Shown here in pieces: positions 3,016 to 25,270 of a stretch of DNA of 63,765 bases; within the stretch, counting starts at the first letter, position 1, and each line of letters starts with the position of its first letter. The stretch spans positions 274,350,236 to 274,414,000 of the forward strand of contig CM097882.1 of assembly GCA_044892505.1 (NCBI GenBank). The letters are read 5' to 3'. The translations under genes were made by a program, and so were the position numbers. The notes beneath the pieces are model-generated. The model searched no databases. It was not told the origin of the DNA and saw only the letters and a list, made by a program, of their open reading frames with translations. This DNA is from Schmidtea nova (lineage: Eukaryota).

Positions 3016-3605
3016 ATGTCAAACAACGCAATCAATCTTCAATCCGAATTGGACAAGGCTTGGCGAATCATTCACAGCCTTGAGAAAGAAATATTGAAAA
3101 AATCAGAGAAGCTGAACACAGCAAAAACTACAACCTCTCAATTAAAGAAGAGCTGGTTTAGTCCAGACCAAATGAAGGCCCAGCTCATGAAGAACCAACG
3201 CTCTCAGCGAGCAAATGATGAGTTTAGAACCGAACTCGAAGCCACAAAAATAGAATTGAGAAAATGTTTAAAATCCGTAACAACATCTTTCATCAACAGC
3301 GAATTAAAACAGCTCATACGCCCAATCACGTACCAGCGTTGGTCAGAAGAAAAGTCTGAATGTACTAAAGGAACCAACACGGAAGAGCCATCTCAGGTTC
3401 GAGAAATACAAATTCAAATTGCACCAAAGAATGCAGAAATTTCCGAAAGCAAGAAAAAGAAGAAGAATAAGATGTGCGCAAGACAACACATTGTAAGAAG
3501 CAAGTAATGCAACAGCTGATCCAACATACGAAGGAATTTCCCGAAATCGATTTAACTACGGATTTCTCAGTGGATGATGAGGATTTCCTCAAATATTTTG
3601 AATAA
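3016..3605 (+). pseudogene. LTR-encoded ~196-aa coiled-coil/basic/acidic-tail protein, one -1 frameshift near 3490
   Basis: The 163-aa ORF continues in another frame as KKQVMQQLIQHTKEFPEIDLTTDFSVDDEDFLKYFE* (TAA 3603-3605), matching the C-terminus of copy B. Confidence 0.8.
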
Positions 3606-11768: not shown

Positions 11769-14398
<2,630 letters not shown>

Positions 14399-15375: not shown

Positions 15376-15982
15376 TCATTCAAAATATTTGATAATATCT
15401 TCATCAGTTACTACGAAATCCATTGTCAAATCAATCTCGGGCACTTCCTTTGAGTGTTGGATTAATTGTTGGAGTACTTGCTTTTTCCAGCGACGCTGAC
15501 GCGCGCCCATCTTACTCTTCTTCTTCTTTTTGACCTCTGCAATTGCTACGCTTTTTGGTGTGGTTGATGCTGTCGTTGCTTGAACCCGAGGAGTGTTCAT
15601 CCGTATTCGTTCCTTTTGAACAGCCTGATTTCTCTTCAGCCCAATGCTGATAGGTAATTGGACGGATGAGTTGTTTCAGCTCTTGATTGAGATAAGAAGC
15701 CGTTACCGATTTCAAACACTTCTTCAATTCCATTTTAGTGGCATCGAGTTCCATCTTTAGTTCATCGTTTGCTCGCTGAGAGCGTTGATTTTTGATGATT
15801 TGCGCCTTCATTTGCTCTGGACTAAACCAGCTCTTCTTTAAATTTGATATTGTGAGGTCAGCTTCTTTTATCCTTTCAGATTTTCTCAACATCTCTTTCT
15901 CCAGGCTGCGGATAATGCGCCACGCCTTGTCCAATTCTGTTTGAGGAGTTACTGAGTTGATTGACATTTTTCTAGAATTCAA
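15376..15982 (-). pseudogene. LTR-encoded protein, copy B, one +1 frameshift near 15595
   Basis: ORFs 15512..15982 and 15376..15600 join into one protein homologous to copy A (about 70% identical over the first ~124 aa by hand alignment). Confidence 0.8.
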
Positions 15983-19700: not shown

Positions 19701-19973
19701 CTGAAATAATCAAGTATTATAATTAATTTTTTCATTAAATTTATATAAATATCCTTATAATAGCTGTACTATCTCGGCAATAATTATAGGGACAGTTAGT
19801 TAAAAATGCAAAGAAAAAAAGGCAATGAATTATTTAATGAAATAACAAATACTGATTAAAATAGTGAAAACAGTGGGATAAATTAATATTTGGTAGGAAA
19901 ACAATACAATAATTTCCATATTGATTTTTGTAAGACTCTAAATTAAAAATAATTTTTTATTTGGTACAAAATA

Positions 19974-21134
19974 AGTAGTAGGAAGTGAGCCCGCCAGATA
20001 TAGGTCAAGACCCCCCCCCTAGAAAATTTTTTTTATGTAGGTCAAATTTATGTAGGTCAATTTAAGGTCAAATTTTTTGCTTAAGGACACTTTAAGGACA
20101 CTTTAAGGACACTTTAAGGTCAAATTTTTTGCTTAAGGTCACTTTGAGGACACTTTAAGGTCAAAAAAGTAGGTCAAGGTCGTTTCAGGGACACTTTAAG
20201 GTGAGTTTAAGGTCAAATTTATGGTTTAAGGACACTTTAAGGACAAAAAAGTAGGTCAAGGTCGTTTTAAGGACACTATAAGGTCAAAAAGAATGCCAAT
20301 TTAAGGTCACGATAAGGACAAATTAAGTAGGTCAAATATTTTTAAGGTGAATTTAAGGTTAAAATAAGTAGGTCAAATATAATTTTCAAATTTTTTCTAT
20401 GTCAGAAAAAAGTAGGTCAAATATTTTTAAGTTGCTATGACAACGAATAAGTAGGTCAACTTTATTTTTTCAAAATTTGGTAGTTGCTATGACAACGAAT
20501 TAAGTAGGTCAATAATAATTTTGAAAATTTTTCTATGTCAGAATTAAGTAGGTCAAATATAAAAACTTAAAAATTTTTTTATGTCAGAAAAAAGTAGGTC
20601 AACTTTATTTTTTCAAATATTTTTCTATGTCAAAAATAAGTAGGTCAACTTTATTTTTTCAAAAATTTTTCTATGTCAGAAAAAAGTAGGTCACGAAAAT
20701 TTTTCTATGTCAGAAAAAAGTAGGTCTCAAAAATATTTCTATGTCAGAAATAAGTAGGTCAACTTTATTTTTATAAAAATTTTCCTGTGTCAGAATTAAG
20801 TAGGTCAAATATAAAATTATTCAAAGTTATAATATATTTAAAATATTTTCTATGTCGGAATTAAGTAGGTCAATTTAAGGTCAATGTGAGGACGAAATAA
20901 GTAGGTCAATTTAAGGTCAAGGTGAGGACAAATTAAGTAGGTCAATAATAATAATTTCTAAAATTTTTTCTATGTAAAAATATAAGTAGGTTAATAATAA
21001 ATTTCGAAATTTTTCAAAGTCAGAATTAAGGGTACATTCAGGGTACTATAAGGTCAACAAAGTAGGTAAAATATATTTTTTCTGTCAGAAAAAAGTAGGT
21101 CACGAACAATTTTTCTATGTCAGAAATAAGTAGG
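19974..21134 (+). repeat. Left terminal inverted repeat, rich in AAGTAGGTCA and TTAAGG(T/A)CA units
   Basis: Reverse complement of ~36990-38108; roughly 20 GTAGGTCA-type motifs by eye. Confidence 0.93.
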
Positions 21135-21674
21135 NNNNNNNNNNNNNNNNNNNNNNNNNNNNNNNNNNNNNNNNNNNNNNNNNNNNNNNNNNNNNNNNNN
21201 NNNNNNNNNNNNNNNNNNNNNNNNNNNNNNNNNNNNNNNNNNNNNNNNNNNNNNNNNNNNNNNNNNNNNNNNNNNNNNNNNNNNNNNNNNNNNNNNNNNN
21301 NNNNNNNNNNNNNNNNNNNNNNNNNNNNNNNNNNNNNNNNNNNNNNNNNNNNNNNNNNNNNNNNNNNNNNNNNNNNNNNNNNNNNNNNNNNNNNNNNNNN
21401 NNNNNNNNNNNNNNNNNNNNNNNNNNNNNNNNNNNNNNNNNNNNNNNNNNNNNNNNNNNNNNNNNNNNNNNNNNNNNNNNNNNNNNNNNNNNNNNNNNNN
21501 NNNNNNNNNNNNNNNNNNNNNNNNNNNNNNNNNNNNNNNNNNNNNNNNNNNNNNNNNNNNNNNNNNNNNNNNNNNNNNNNNNNNNNNNNNNNNNNNATCT
21601 TATAAAAAATGGAACAATCAAAAACTAAAATTTAAATTACTAACATTTATTAAATAACATTTATAAAATAACAT

Positions 21675-22142
21675 TTATGCATATCGTGCACTGTCAATTC
21701 TCCAAATTGGAGTTATAACATCTTTTGTATCTACTTTATAACCCTGAATAATTATATTAATGAACCAGTGTTCTTGATCCTTGTATTCGATTGATTGGAA
21801 TGCATCATGAAAACGAGTTTTTCTGTTGTTGATGTATATTGTTTCTTTGCAACTTAAATTTTTATTGATTTTCAATAAAATTTTATTTAGTGCAACAACA
21901 TCTTCTTTAGATATATTTGCAGCTAAACTGTCATACAATGATTTTGTTAATTTAACCGGATACAATAATCTAAAAGGTATTTCTTCTACCAAGAAATAAA
22001 TTTTATAGTCATAATACATTTGGACTGGTTTGACTTCTGTCTTGATTTTTCTTTTAATTCCTTCTTTCTTGTTTTCTTCCCCATTGATTGGGTTGTTAAA
22101 AATATTATCATAAGTAGGAAAATTTTCTTTGTAAGATTGCAT
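21675..22142 (-). CDS. Polinton accessory protein, 155 aa; possibly a ssDNA-binding OB-fold
   Basis: Intact ORF with a TATAAATA about 45 nt upstream. The C-terminal WFINIIIQGYKVDTKDVITPIWRIDSARY pattern is reminiscent of viral SSBs (inference). Confidence 0.6.
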   Translation of the reverse strand: MQSYKENFPTYDNIFNNPINGEENKKEGIKRKIKTEVKPVQMYYDYKIYFLVEEIPFRLLYPVKLTKSLYDSLAANISKEDVVALNKILLKINKNLSCKETIYINNRKTRFHDAFQSIEYKDQEHWFINIIIQGYKVDTKDVITPIWRIDSARYA

Positions 22143-22688
22143 TTTAATAATTGTGACATTATCTAAAAAATAGCTTTGTATTTATAGTCATGAGTTTATG
22201 TCTTTGTCCAATGAAAATGAAGCATTCACATTGTGTGTTATGGATGTGTGTATGTTATGCGTGTGTGTATGTCTTTGTTACATGTTTTTTGTCGAATGTG
22301 TGTATGTCTTTGTTACATGTTTTTGTCACATGTGTATCTTTGTCACATGTGTATCTTTGTCACATGTATTAAATAATTGATCATGTGTGCGTATTTTTAT
22401 TTAGTTAAATGTTTTATTTAATGTCTTTATTTAAAATGTTTATGTATTTAGTTAATATTTATATTTCTTTATAAGTCAAATTGTTTTAATAATGAAAACC
22501 TCTATATTAAGAAAAACATTACTATTTAAAAAAAATAAACTAAAACCTGAACTTTAATATAAATTTATAAACAAACTAAAATACTAATACTAATAAATTT
22601 ATTAAATGAAAACTAAAAAAGGTAATTATAACACACAAAAACATAAATAATAACAATAAAAATAACATAAAACATAAAATATATACAA

Positions 22689-23210
22689 TTATTTCTGTGG
22701 TGATGATTGATTGCAATCTATCATTTCACGATTGCATTCTTCGTAATCTGGAAGATCATCGGTAATCTTGCGATGACATTCCTCACAATTAGGTGATTCT
22801 GGCGAATCGCCGCATTGTGACAATTTATCACATTGAATCGATTCGTCTGTAGGACCCGAACAATCAGCGGATCCATTGTAATCAGGAGTACTATTGGGCC
22901 ATATTTTAGGTTCTTCTTCTTCTTTTGAGGATTCTAATTCGAATCTTTTTAGTTCCGTCCGCAAAATCCATATACAGAACCTCTCAATTCGGTCAGTACA
23001 ATGACCGCATTGATAGGCACACAGGATGTGCTCGGCCATGAAAGGGATTTCGACATTTAGATTTGCGAGGTGGTCCAGCAATATTTGATTAATATCTATT
23101 CCCGTAATACACTGGATCTTATACGGGAGTAGTTCCGGTGCTGTGTAAGTCAGCTGCGTCATCAAATTGGGGAATATTTCTTCCAGTTTTCTGTATAATA
23201 CAGCCATCAT
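22689..23210 (-). CDS. Polinton orphan protein, 173 aa, Cys-containing with acidic C-terminal half
   Basis: Intact ORF (CAYQCGHC; CEECH). A possible upstream ATG micro-exon with a GTAAAT...AG intron lies at ~23211-23263. Two CCAAT boxes at ~23372 and ~23426. Confidence 0.6.
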   Translation of the reverse strand: MMAVLYRKLEEIFPNLMTQLTYTAPELLPYKIQCITGIDINQILLDHLANLNVEIPFMAEHILCAYQCGHCTDRIERFCIWILRTELKRFELESSKEEEEPKIWPNSTPDYNGSADCSGPTDESIQCDKLSQCGDSPESPNCEECHRKITDDLPDYEECNREMIDCNQSSPQK

Positions 23211-23457
23211 CTTTTCTAAAAAAGTAAATTATAAAAAATGTAAACAAGTAATTTTTTAATTTACCATTTTTGAGTTTTGTCGATGTGAGACTCATTTTAG
23301 ATATAAATTATCACAAAATGTTCATGGTACGATAGTAACACACACAACATATATGAAATAATACACACATAACCAATCAGATTCGAGTGCACGTAATATG
23401 TCTTTATCTGATAAATACATACACAGCCAATCAGAATCGTGCATTACTATTGTAGGT

Positions 23458-23943
23458 TTATTGCAAACATGAGTCACATGATAATAAAAAATCTAAAAAG
23501 TCTTTATCTTCAATAATTGATTTTATATCGATAATAATACTATCAACTATATTATAATAATCCCTATTTTTTAACCCTAATATCACTACTTTACCGCTTG
23601 CAAATATATTAACACACATAGGATTATATTTTATATATCTCAAAGCTGGAAATATTTCTGGCTCGTAAACACAATCCATTAATTTAGCTAAAACATTTAA
23701 ATTACAACTAAATCCCAAGTCTACCGTTACAGTAATTGATTGTATTTTTAAATCATAAATCTTTATTTTTTCATCACTAATAAATTCCTTGCATCCCATT
23801 ATTCTAAATCTTCCGGTCTTAAAAAATATTATCGGGTACTTACCACTTCTATCAATAATTTGCTGCGGTTTCCCCTTTGGGAAATTCAAGTGAGATACAT
23901 CAGTTTTACCCTTATAATTTATGTTGCTAATCATTACTTTCAT
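23458..23943 (-). CDS. TATA-binding protein (TBP)-like protein, 161 aa
   Basis: Two TBP repeats: ISNINY...IIFFKTGRFRIMGCK and KIQSITVTVDLGFSCNLNVLA...YEPEIFPALRY...NIFASGKVVILGLK, compared with canonical KIQN...YEPELFPGLIY...LIFVSGKVVLTGAK. Confidence 0.88.
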   Translation of the reverse strand: MKVMISNINYKGKTDVSHLNFPKGKPQQIIDRSGKYPIIFFKTGRFRIMGCKEFISDEKIKIYDLKIQSITVTVDLGFSCNLNVLAKLMDCVYEPEIFPALRYIKYNPMCVNIFASGKVVILGLKNRDYYNIVDSIIIDIKSIIEDKDFLDFLLSCDSCLQ

Positions 23944-24030
23944 GAATATTTTTTAAATATGAGAACTGTAATGAAAACTATTATTTAAAACAAATATAAA
24001 CAATAATACTAAAATAATAAAATAAAAAAT

Positions 24031-24654
24031 ATGGAATTAAGAAATGATGCAGTGTTTCAAATTGTTGGACCGAGCGGGAGTGGGAAAACTTTATTTGTTT
24101 GTAAATTATTACAATCAAAATTATTTAAATTAAAGTTTAATAAAATTTATTGGCATAGGGGTGCGGATGATGAACATGGAATGACTCAAGATCAATTTTG
24201 TAAAATAAAAATGACTATAATAAAAGGTTTCGATAAAAATTGGTCATCTAGATTACGACAAGGTGATGTGATTATTATTGATGATTTGTACCAAGAAGCA
24301 AATAAAGAAAAGGATTTTAATAATTTATTTACAAAAATCGCTAGACACAAGGGTGTTACAGTTATTTTTATTACTCAGAATTTATTTCATCAGGGTGGTA
24401 GTCATCGAACTCGTAATTTGAATGTTCAATATCTTGTTGTTTTTAAAAATCCTAGAGATGCAACAGTTATTGATTTTCTTGCAAGACAAGCATACCCTTC
24501 TAATCGTAATTTCTTGATTGATGCATTCCAAGATGCCACAAAAGCCCCTCATGGATATCTTTTTCTTGATTTCACGCAACAATGTAGTGATGATTTACGA
24601 GTTAGAACAGATATTTTCAACAAGGAAGGAGCAATGGTTTATAAACAAAGTTAA
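24031..24654 (+). CDS. A32/FtsK-like genome packaging ATPase
   Basis: Walker A GPSGSGKT, Walker B VIIIDD, ARHKG and ITQNLF motifs. Confidence 0.95.
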   Translation: MELRNDAVFQIVGPSGSGKTLFVCKLLQSKLFKLKFNKIYWHRGADDEHGMTQDQFCKIKMTIIKGFDKNWSSRLRQGDVIIIDDLYQEANKEKDFNNLFTKIARHKGVTVIFITQNLFHQGGSHRTRNLNVQYLVVFKNPRDATVIDFLARQAYPSNRNFLIDAFQDATKAPHGYLFLDFTQQCSDDLRVRTDIFNKEGAMVYKQS

Positions 24655-24674
24655 CTGGATGTATATTATCAATC

Positions 24675-25215
24675 ATGTTAATGAAATCTAGAGTAAAGTT
24701 TGAGCGCTTGATAAAGGCTAGAAAAATGAAGAAACCGGGAAAGAAATTAGTTTCAAAGAAAGTATTTACAAAGAAAACAAAGAAACCAGTTTCAAAAACC
24801 AGTTATACACCATCTAAAAAATTACTTATTGATAATATCCCAAAAAGTAATCGTATTCAAAATACTTACAAACCAAATCCGAAACAAATACATCATCGTA
24901 GTTTCCCATTTTTCAATGCATTACTTAAAGCCCCTAGTATTAGAAGAATGAGTATTTTACAATCATTTCCTAATTATGTTATTGACGATTTACTAATGAT
25001 TTATTAAAGTTGTTAGAGGTAAAATCAATATAAGTGAATCTAATAGAAGAGTTTTGAACAAACACAAGAAACCATTGTTATCACTTGTAAAAACCAAAAA
25101 TAGAAAATTAATGCGTAAAATAATATATAAACAACAAGGAGGGTTTATTGCAGCATTGTTACCATTAGCATTATCACTATTAGGAGGTGCTGGTTTATTA
25201 GGAAAACAGTCATAA
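24675..25215 (+). pseudogene. Basic core protein with C-terminal adenovirus pX-like QQGGFIAALLPL motif; one-base insertion near 25000
   Basis: Removing one T in ATGATTTATTAAAG joins the K-rich 110-aa ORF to KVVRG...KQQGGFIAALLPLALSLLGGAGLLGKQS* (179 aa in total). Confidence 0.7.
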
Positions 25216-25270
25216 ACAATGGGACAATCGTTGCCTAATCTTAATTTAAACTTTAAATCTTCTTGTTGTA

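Follow-up and report, generated by a model that had tools for sequence, protein, structure and literature searches.

By its sequence and its modelled structure, the protein encoded at positions 23458-23943 of the window (the whole 63,765-nucleotide stretch of Schmidtea nova DNA analysed here) is a remodelled TATA-binding protein (TBP) carried by a Polinton. We consider that this protein, vTBP, probably serves the widespread Polinton family that carries it as a late-promoter specificity factor, which would recruit host TFIIB and RNA polymerase II (Pol II) in the manner of the herpesvirus proteins ORF24 and BcRF1, and we put the probability of this reading at roughly 65%. The candidate promoter element is the box YATAAACR, found before late-type genes. 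The original prediction, made from the letters of the window, had proposed that an element without an RNA polymerase uses such a protein to redirect host Pol II and TFIIB to its own very AT-rich promoters. The first part stands, as a remodelled TBP is present in a Polinton in which neither an RNA polymerase gene nor a TFIIB gene was seen. The redirection has gained a candidate promoter box and a weak model of TFIIB binding, but the AT-rich target had to be given up, since the box is distinguished by a C.

The element is a Polinton/Maverick of adintovirus-like type that occupies positions 19974..38108 (18,135 bp), starts with AGTAGT, ends with ACTACT and is flanked by a perfect 6-bp target duplication, AAAATA, at 19968-19973 and 38109-38114. 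Polintons are recognised by long terminal inverted repeats, AG..CT ends and a 6-bp target duplication, all of which are found here. The terminal repeats and genes are as follows.

19974..21135, plus strand: left terminal inverted repeat, about 1.1 kb, repetitive, running into masked N, with 30 AGGTCA half-sites
21675..22142, minus strand: OB-fold protein, predicted single-stranded DNA-binding protein (SSB) of T7 gp2.5/Enc34-like type (structure comparison Z 7-8, middling), with a canonical TATAAATA 44 nt upstream
22689..23210, minus strand: ORF173, 173 residues, with a Cys/His cluster
23458..23943, minus strand: vTBP, the TBP-like gene, with a conserved start at 23934 (158 residues)
24031..24654, plus strand: A32/FtsK-like packaging ATPase, open (Pox_A32, 1e-6)
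24675..25216 (end approximate), plus strand: cluster C3 gene, encoding a conserved basic protein downstream of the ATPase, with a frameshift here
25271..26310 (end approximate), plus strand: retroviral-like integrase, broken here (rve, 8e-10)
26283..27329, plus strand: putative penton/minor capsid gene, with a stop at 27015, named from its position and with no family match
27322..27687, plus strand: 121-residue ORF common to relatives, pX-like by eye only
27684..28904, plus strand: double jelly-roll major capsid protein, open (DJR-like, 0.0015, below the cut-off)
28981..29363, plus strand: adenain-like protease (Peptidase_C5, 2e-5), its 5' start inferred
29396..29782, plus strand: cluster C2 gene, exonuclease-like by eye only and with no Pfam match, with a stop at 29537 here
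31969..35904, plus strand: family B DNA polymerase (PolB) with an endonuclease VII-like insert, open
36980..38108, minus strand: right terminal inverted repeat, about 1.1 kb, repetitive, with 27 AGGTCA half-sites

The core set described for such elements (PolB, rve integrase, FtsK-like ATPase, adenain and double jelly-roll capsid; PMC8502044) is thus present, with rve, Pox_A32 and Peptidase_C5 above the Pfam cut-off, the double jelly-roll match below it, and PolB. At E 0.1, the window PolB gave no match to PF03175, the Alpha-adintovirus PolB class, which fits a Beta assignment; it is 33% identical to the PolB of metagenome locus L072, itself matching PF03175, and vTBP also occurs in relatives with a PF03175 PolB or PLA2X. 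The structure matches of the 155-residue OB-fold ORF were mostly SSBs among the tied top rows. Five lesions were found in the approximately 11 kb of coding DNA of this copy, namely two in the integrase (a stop at 25316 and a frame change near 25811-25825), one in the penton gene (the stop at 27015), one in the cluster C3 gene (a frame change near 24990) and one in gene 29396 (the stop at 29537). A 43-nt GT..AG stretch at 25659-25701 within the integrase, present in all three sister copies checked and in none of 15 metagenome integrases, is by its sequence likely a spliceosomal intron rather than a further break.

Several other observations were made along the stretch. The 5' end of the protease holds a short intron-like GT..AG stretch (about 28986-29034), which unlike that of the integrase was not confirmed in sister copies, and 30366-30950 looks like a gene, with AT-rich GT..AG introns between several short exons that in part repeat one another; a TATAAACA at 30189 precedes the first ATG of this multi-exon candidate by 177 nt. 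The AGGTCA arrays of the terminal repeats contain 19 copies each in the form WAWNTAGGTCA, compared to 13 AGGTCA on both strands of the 43.6-kb flank, and are shorter in a sister subfamily. WAWNTAGGTCA matches the monomer site of the ROR/Rev-erb nuclear receptors; through the arrays a host nuclear receptor might act on the element, or they may be repeats of a replication origin. The flank also contains an open 602-residue hAT-like transposase with weak Pfam matches (11982-13790, minus strand) and two related ORFs in inverted orientation (3016-3507 and 15512-15967).

The vTBP gene was read, as originally described, as an open 161-codon ORF on the minus strand, inside the terminal inverted repeats and divergent from the ATPase gene across a gap of 87 bp (23944-24030). 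The frame is indeed open, but the length of 161 residues is likely too long by three, as the first ATG is private to this copy: it is found in 0 of 27 full-length sisters, while the ATG at codon 4 is present in all 27, and the real start is therefore probably at 23934. The protein matches Pfam TBP (PF00352) with an E value of 9.9e-16 and 57.8 bits (curated cut-off 22.9), all 83 members of the family match the same profile at E <= 0.001, and 35 TBP-containing sequences in the PDB are matched at E below 1e-10. The structural check that had been proposed, an AlphaFold model built here from an alignment of 83 relatives (pLDDT 94.6), yielded a two-lobed TBP saddle, residues 1-145 of which superpose on residues 161-337 of human TBP with a Z score of 12.7 and an rmsd of 2.6 A over 144 residues. 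Foldseek likewise matched TBPs over both lobes (E about 1e-9), and in the ESM Atlas the matches of vTBP were exclusively TBP clusters; for the SSB ORF the Atlas gave no useful match. The 158 residues are wholly accounted for by the TBP fold, leaving no N-terminal tail.

The residues of vTBP were compared using a profile alignment to 37 canonical TBPs and column counts over the 83 family members, with yeast numbering set by an offset that reproduces A100, F116, P191, I194, V203 and L205 (PMC1636458, PMC7221094). The features first noticed by eye in the two repeats were all recovered: repeat 2 has the YEPEIF stirrup at 93-98 and both DNA-intercalating phenylalanines, F98 and F114, while repeat 1 is shortened, has lost its first phenylalanine (now P26) and has QS in place of QN at 68-69. 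Three of the four intercalating phenylalanines are therefore kept, F41, F98 and F114 (F116, F190 and F207) being found in 83 of 83 members each, and the first is proline in 80. Also kept are N69 (75 of 83), P191 (74) and the two TFIIB-binding stirrup glutamates, E94 (E186; 77) and E96 (E188; 82). The changes found throughout the family, with the numbering of this copy and the count out of 83 in brackets, are V71→N (70), T73→K/R (69), F99→P (P26; 80), V122→R (R47; 82), T124→M (M49; 83), N159→S/T (S/T69; 83), V161→T/S (81), I194→R (R102; 67), V203→C (C110; 69) and L205→N (N112; 83). In canonical TBP the minor groove is contacted by N69, N159, T124, T215, V71, V122, V161 and L205; of this set the window vTBP keeps only N69, and most of the other changes are family-wide. 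Most of the residues changed across the family presumably face DNA, judging from TBP-TATA structures. Read from the alignment, the family has rebuilt its DNA-reading face.

R102, C110 and N112 correspond to I194, V203 and L205, the three positions altered in TBPm3, which thereby gains binding to TGTA (PMC1636458). Repeat 1, the N-terminal one, reads the 3' half of the box, where a C is disfavoured by TBPm3 (PMC1636458). The family is in this respect a natural experiment on TBP specificity, in which the three TBPm3 positions have changed together with the half that reads base 7. In this copy the model has no helix in residues 1-62, so that both repeat-1 helices (H1 and H2), the site of a basic regulatory patch in canonical TBP, are gone, and the repeat-1 spacers measure 20 and 19 residues compared to medians of 31 and 34. 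Helix loss is not family-wide, as about 14 of the 83 members (by eye) have full-length spacers, and the changes on the DNA face are for this reason probably older than the loss of the helices.

At least 150 copies are present in the 1.25-Gb genome, the best-scoring matches all being 97-100% identical and open, and an intergenic 21-mer has 157 exact matches; other subfamilies in the genome carry versions of vTBP that are 64-94% identical. When a Polinton lacking TBP was sought in this genome, both copies opened (2 of 99 matches) were found to carry vTBP. The family signature was seen in 116 of 176 proteins compared, and more than 100 related protein clusters lie outside this genome. Among the metagenome loci (the best 80 of 117 matches), 45 have a Polinton core gene on the same contig, as do 28 of the 36 on contigs of at least 3 kb, and vTBP is spread over at least three ATPase clades. 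In some of these elements (L054:1918-3327 and four more loci) a 470-residue leucine-rich-repeat protein is encoded two genes downstream of vTBP. Scans of viral contigs returned no vTBP relative, the single TBP found being archaeal-looking, and no close capsid relative; the only four ATPases, all distant, were used solely as an outgroup. Contigs of unknown kind from four runs gave cover in all 30 bins, with no intron joint among 15 listed of 238, and are neutral on expression.

The search for sister Polintons, which had been suggested together with dN/dS, thus found many that carry vTBP, and the NG86 dN/dS values were 0.16 and 0.18 against two subfamilies in this genome, with a median of 0.17 and a maximum of 0.42 across 48 non-independent metagenome pairs; against two near-identical copies, where very few changes are available, they were 0.68-0.69. 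In the sequences compared, vTBP is conserved across sister elements under purifying selection. This does not extend to the particular copy in the window. That its ORF is intact while integrase and penton are broken had been part of the original argument, yet by a hand calculation five lesions in about 11 kb spare a 0.49-kb gene by chance about 80% of the time, and intactness here is consequently uninformative. Selection of this copy was also rejected on the evidence of its sisters: among copies picked by the non-coding 21-mer (the first 30 of 157), vTBP is open in only 17 of 27 full-length ones (17 of 23 if a five-copy tandem array is counted once), and the corresponding figures are 17 of 20 for the ATPase and 27 of 30 for ORF173. 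The array consists of five tandem 4.1-kb repeats of the left part of the element (G000:C1:172.09-172.11 Mb, L163-L167), and in each of the five the ATPase is truncated and vTBP has the same late stop. It is the replicating lineage that is under selection and not the copy inserted here.

The phylogeny with host TBPs, likewise proposed at the outset, placed vTBP apart from host TBP1 and TBP2. In a quick tree of 83 rows, a single branch separates the family from every cellular TBP (SH-aLRT 99), and the same branch received 100/99 in a tree of 37 of those rows under LG+G4, in which long branches were flagged. Which database proteins are labelled 'eukaryotic' or 'archaeal' is the analyst's reading, and the trees include no named giant-virus TBP. 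AU tests on the 37 rows, again under LG+G4, rejected a clade of the window vTBP with host TBP1/TBP2 (p-AU 2e-66) but were compatible with the whole family grouping with two divergent host paralogues (p-AU 0.14, long branches flagged). At least four TBP-like genes (L112, L113/L115, L114, L116) are present in the host, and two of these are divergent. A recently captured, neutrally evolving fragment of host TBP could draw on the existence of several paralogues and on the latter p-AU, but the rejected clade, the 100/99 branch, a dN/dS of about 0.17 and the occurrence in many unrelated elements leave it next to no probability, and recent capture is refuted by distribution, dN/dS and tree. Since the grouping with the two divergent paralogues is compatible and the long branches are flagged, the origin may still be an ancient host gene.

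The box (T/C)ATAAAC(A/G) was first seen when reading upstream of ATPase genes. It was counted within 90 nt upstream and 30 nt downstream of the first Met, after removal of near-duplicates and with dinucleotide shuffles as the null. ATAAAC[AG] was present before 26 of 27 ATPase genes (1.3 in shuffles), 10 of 10 capsid genes and 16 of 17 cluster C3 genes, and before PLA2-like (11/13), integrase (11/16), penton (9/15) and cluster C2 (15/22) genes. It was scarce before vTBP (3/58, with 2.6 in shuffles), SSB (2/17), the small pre-capsid ORF (1/6) and protease (2/6) genes. Pooled, with a late/early grouping that was chosen after the per-gene counts had been seen, 83 of 98 genes of packaging, capsid and integrase type have the box in front of them, compared to 6 of 83 of TBP/SSB type; the 15 late-type genes without it include the protease of this element. 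ATAAAC is the top 6-mer before late-type genes (85/98, with 10.4 expected), and the modal distance from box to ATG is 33-37 nt. The early-type genes are instead enriched for CCAATC, their top 6-mer, and for TATAAA, and TATAWAW precedes 34 of 58 vTBP genes compared to 14 in shuffles. In the element itself, the boxes are located as follows.

23995..24002, plus strand: TATAAACA, candidate late-promoter box, its ATAAAC 35 nt before the ATPase ATG
24640..24647, plus strand: TATAAACA box, 34 nt before gene 24675 and within the last ATPase codons
25211..25218, plus strand: CATAAACA box, 59 nt before the integrase ATG
26239..26246, plus strand: GATAAACA box, 43 nt before the penton ATG
27221..27228, plus strand: TATAAACA box, 100 nt before ORF 27322
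27642..27649, plus strand: TATAAACA box, 41 nt before the major capsid ATG
29359..29366, plus strand: TATAAACA box, 36 nt before gene 29396

The 6.3-kb late block of the element has 10 sites on the plus strand and none on the minus strand, whereas the 43.6-kb flank has 15 and 17, respectively, and a sister subfamily, with a capsid protein 85% identical, displays the same layout. No box was found in this element before the protease, which has TATAAATG, or before PolB, vTBP, ORF173 and SSB, and a canonical TATAWAW is absent upstream of its own vTBP gene. Two CCAATCAG boxes lie between vTBP and ORF173, at 23370-23435.

The Forkhead consensus is RYAAAYA, and ATAAACA fits it. The box might accordingly be a host Forkhead-type site or some other signal, with vTBP doing an unrelated job such as bending DNA at replication termini, for which it could be noted that the gene often adjoins that of the SSB (20 of 80 metagenome loci). 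We consider this improbable, as 83 of the 98 late-type genes have the box in forward and none in reverse orientation, the spacing keeps to 33-37 nt and GTAAAC[AG] is found before only two of the 98, a pattern like that of a core promoter and not of an enhancer. The Forkhead site as such was rejected for its strict orientation, fixed spacing and lack of GTAAAC[AG] enrichment. It is somewhat less far-fetched, though still distinctly unlikely, that vTBP is a repression-proof stand-in for TBP at all promoters of the element, the box reflecting a mild preference or a second factor. The repeat-1 helices, with their surface for Mot1, TAF1, TFIIA and Brf1 (PMC7221094), have been lost in this sub-lineage, as such a stand-in would favour, and some late genes of this element do have a canonical TATA. 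However, the members that keep the helices share both the DNA-face changes and the box, and TATAAA[AT] precedes only 14 of 98 late genes compared to 34 of 83 early ones.

A set of 11 control contigs was picked by ATPase alone, irrespective of TBP. In the two with vTBP, 10 of 11 late-type genes are preceded by the box, with scattered spacing in one of the two contigs. No vTBP was seen in the other nine, and there the box precedes 0 of 27 such genes; these nine are fragments, most of them GC-richer, whose missing parts could contain a vTBP, and in one of them a site lies 13 nt inside a capsid ORF. Eight of the nine ATPases without vTBP were placed on the tree and form a single clade (97/82), which includes locus L110, where vTBP is present but the ATPase has no box, and because of this single clade the control comes close to one independent contrast. 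The control Polinton pieces (L180-L190) sit in bacterial or archaeal metagenome bins, into which contigs of eukaryotic viruses were probably sorted by mistake.

A crystal structure of wild-type TBP with a C(-25) variant of the TATA box exists, according to the title of PDB entry 1qn3. On this account, host TBP may read the box itself. We assume here that C(-25) of that structure is position 7 of the box. In the main rival reading, which we regard as unlikely, YATAAACR is then a weak TATA variant for host TBP and vTBP a decoy, which binds TFIIB or other factors and dampens host transcription. TATAAAC does contain the TATAAA core, the stirrup glutamates are kept, and the loss of one intercalating phenylalanine abolishes TATA binding by TRF2 (PMC10005294). 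A decoy would, however, not need about ten near-invariant, family-specific residues on its DNA face, and the box follows gene class within elements and the presence of vTBP across elements. Moreover, 8 of the 27 ATPase boxes, about a third, begin with C.

The preferred reading, that of a late-promoter factor, also requires a partner. TFIIA, TAF1, Brf1 and Mot1/BTAF1 contact the N-lobe of TBP, while TFIIB is contacted by the two glutamates (PMC7221094). No TFIIB gene was found among the 12 ORFs of the element or in the 80 metagenome loci, where masked N and fragmentary contigs leave room for one, nor was a repeated TFIIB found in the genome, which holds only six PF00382 matches in all; these look like TFIIB and Brf1 paralogues. 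The 155-residue neighbour was rejected as a transcription partner, as it folds like an SSB. The complex model with TFIIB that the original prediction had called for was built from vTBP 1-150 and the core of the TFIIB P0192, which shares 97% identity with a host exon. It scored 0.58, compared to 0.00 for the best of three controls, with contacts agreeing at 96% and partner pLDDT of 84 or more, but it falls within a weak score range: 51 of 78 solved pairs reached the mark, as did 2 of 108 mismatched ones, and scores of 0.60 or under comprise only five solved pairs and all four passing mismatches. The model lends weak support to binding between vTBP and TFIIB, and memory of solved TBP-TFIIB structures may explain its score.

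Under the preferred reading, the early genes (vTBP and SSB) would be transcribed by host TBP/TFIID from promoters with CCAAT and TATA. vTBP would then bind the minor groove of YATAAACR. Its repeat 1, altered by F99→P, V122→R, T124→M and V71→N in yeast numbering, would tolerate a C at position 7, which ordinary TBP would disfavour, while the intact C-terminal stirrup would recruit host TFIIB and hence Pol II. Loss of the repeat-1 helices would remove the surface for Mot1/BTAF1, TAF1, TFIIA and Brf1, allowing the late complex to escape host control of TBP, and the outcome would be an early-to-late switch from one protein of 158 residues. More broadly, we judge it slightly better than an even bet that a wide group of Polintons are self-sufficient nuclear viruses, whose early-to-late cascade is switched by this small TBP reading YATAAACR, recruiting TFIIB and Pol II and blind to the host regulators of TBP. 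For the way in which animal Polintons express their capsid genes, alone or with a helper virus, the present reading offers a specific factor and a specific promoter, which one small protein suffices to check. If true, it would amount to a swap like that of sigma factors in a eukaryote and to a natural orthogonal pair of TBP and promoter, and vTBP and its box could be used as an orthogonal promoter system.

The element resembles the adintoviruses (Starrett et al. 2021) in its PolB, rve integrase, FtsK-like ATPase, adenain and capsid genes and in its inverted repeats (PMC8502044). The original prediction had counted an existing description of TBP-bearing Polintons against itself. Of the family and the box no description was found in the literature outside subscription journals and Repbase, but the legend of Fig. 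5 in that paper, in a section on non-animal datasets, carries the label 'TBP' for a gene, possibly of this family, in a MELD virus or related element (PMC8502044). The label, known here from the legend alone, occurs once, without further discussion and without family, host range, residues, promoter or function, and does not recur in the text extracted from Suppl. Fig. S2, which maps animal adintoviruses (PMC8502044). Among the papers listed from the same literature, only this one and its preprint were seen to link TBP to such elements, and a term look-up in the accessible text of PMC12220804, PMC11131425, 10.64898/2026.10.13.758929 and 10.1101/2023.08.22.554363 gave no mention of a TATA-binding protein. 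The gene label has thus already been printed, while the family, its remodelling and its promoter are new as far as the literature was searched.

With cellular TBP and its relatives TRF2/TBPL1 and yeast TBPm3, vTBP shares the fold, the YEPE[IL]FP stirrup and the equivalents of F116, F190, F207, N69 and P191; it differs from cellular TBP in its changed DNA face, in lacking the N-terminal tail and, in this copy, in having lost the repeat-1 helices. The TBPs of the Nucleocytoviricota (mimi-, asfar-, irido-, phycodna- and poxviruses) are alike in their two-lobed fold and diverged N-lobe regulatory surface (PMC7221094), and Foldseek matched vTBP to the viral TBPs of BFVD at E values of 1e-8 to 1e-3, with an identity of only 8-23%. 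The known viral TBPs have, however, also diverged at the TFIIB glutamates and pair with a TFIIB of their own (PMC7221094), whereas vTBP keeps both glutamates and neither the element nor the 80 loci yielded a viral TFIIB.

The closest parallel in function would be the TBP mimics of beta- and gammaherpesviruses (KSHV ORF24, EBV BcRF1 and HCMV UL87), which work with TATT late promoters (PMC6541308). There, as would be the case here, a virus without an RNA polymerase of its own co-opts Pol II through a TBP fold and a modified TATA placed before late structural genes. The mimics differ in that they themselves contact Pol II and depend on five further viral proteins (PMC6541308), are larger (577 residues for BcRF1 and 733-1005 for the UL87/U58 type, compared to 158) and have only weak fold similarity to vTBP (E about 0.02); the box here is YATAAACR and not TATT, no partner genes were seen, and vTBP is near cellular TBP in sequence. 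If the reading is true, the system would be far simpler than the six-protein late complex of herpesviruses or the sets of TBP, TFIIB and polymerase of giant viruses. By analogy, vTBP likely works like the herpesvirus TBP mimics without being a member of their group.
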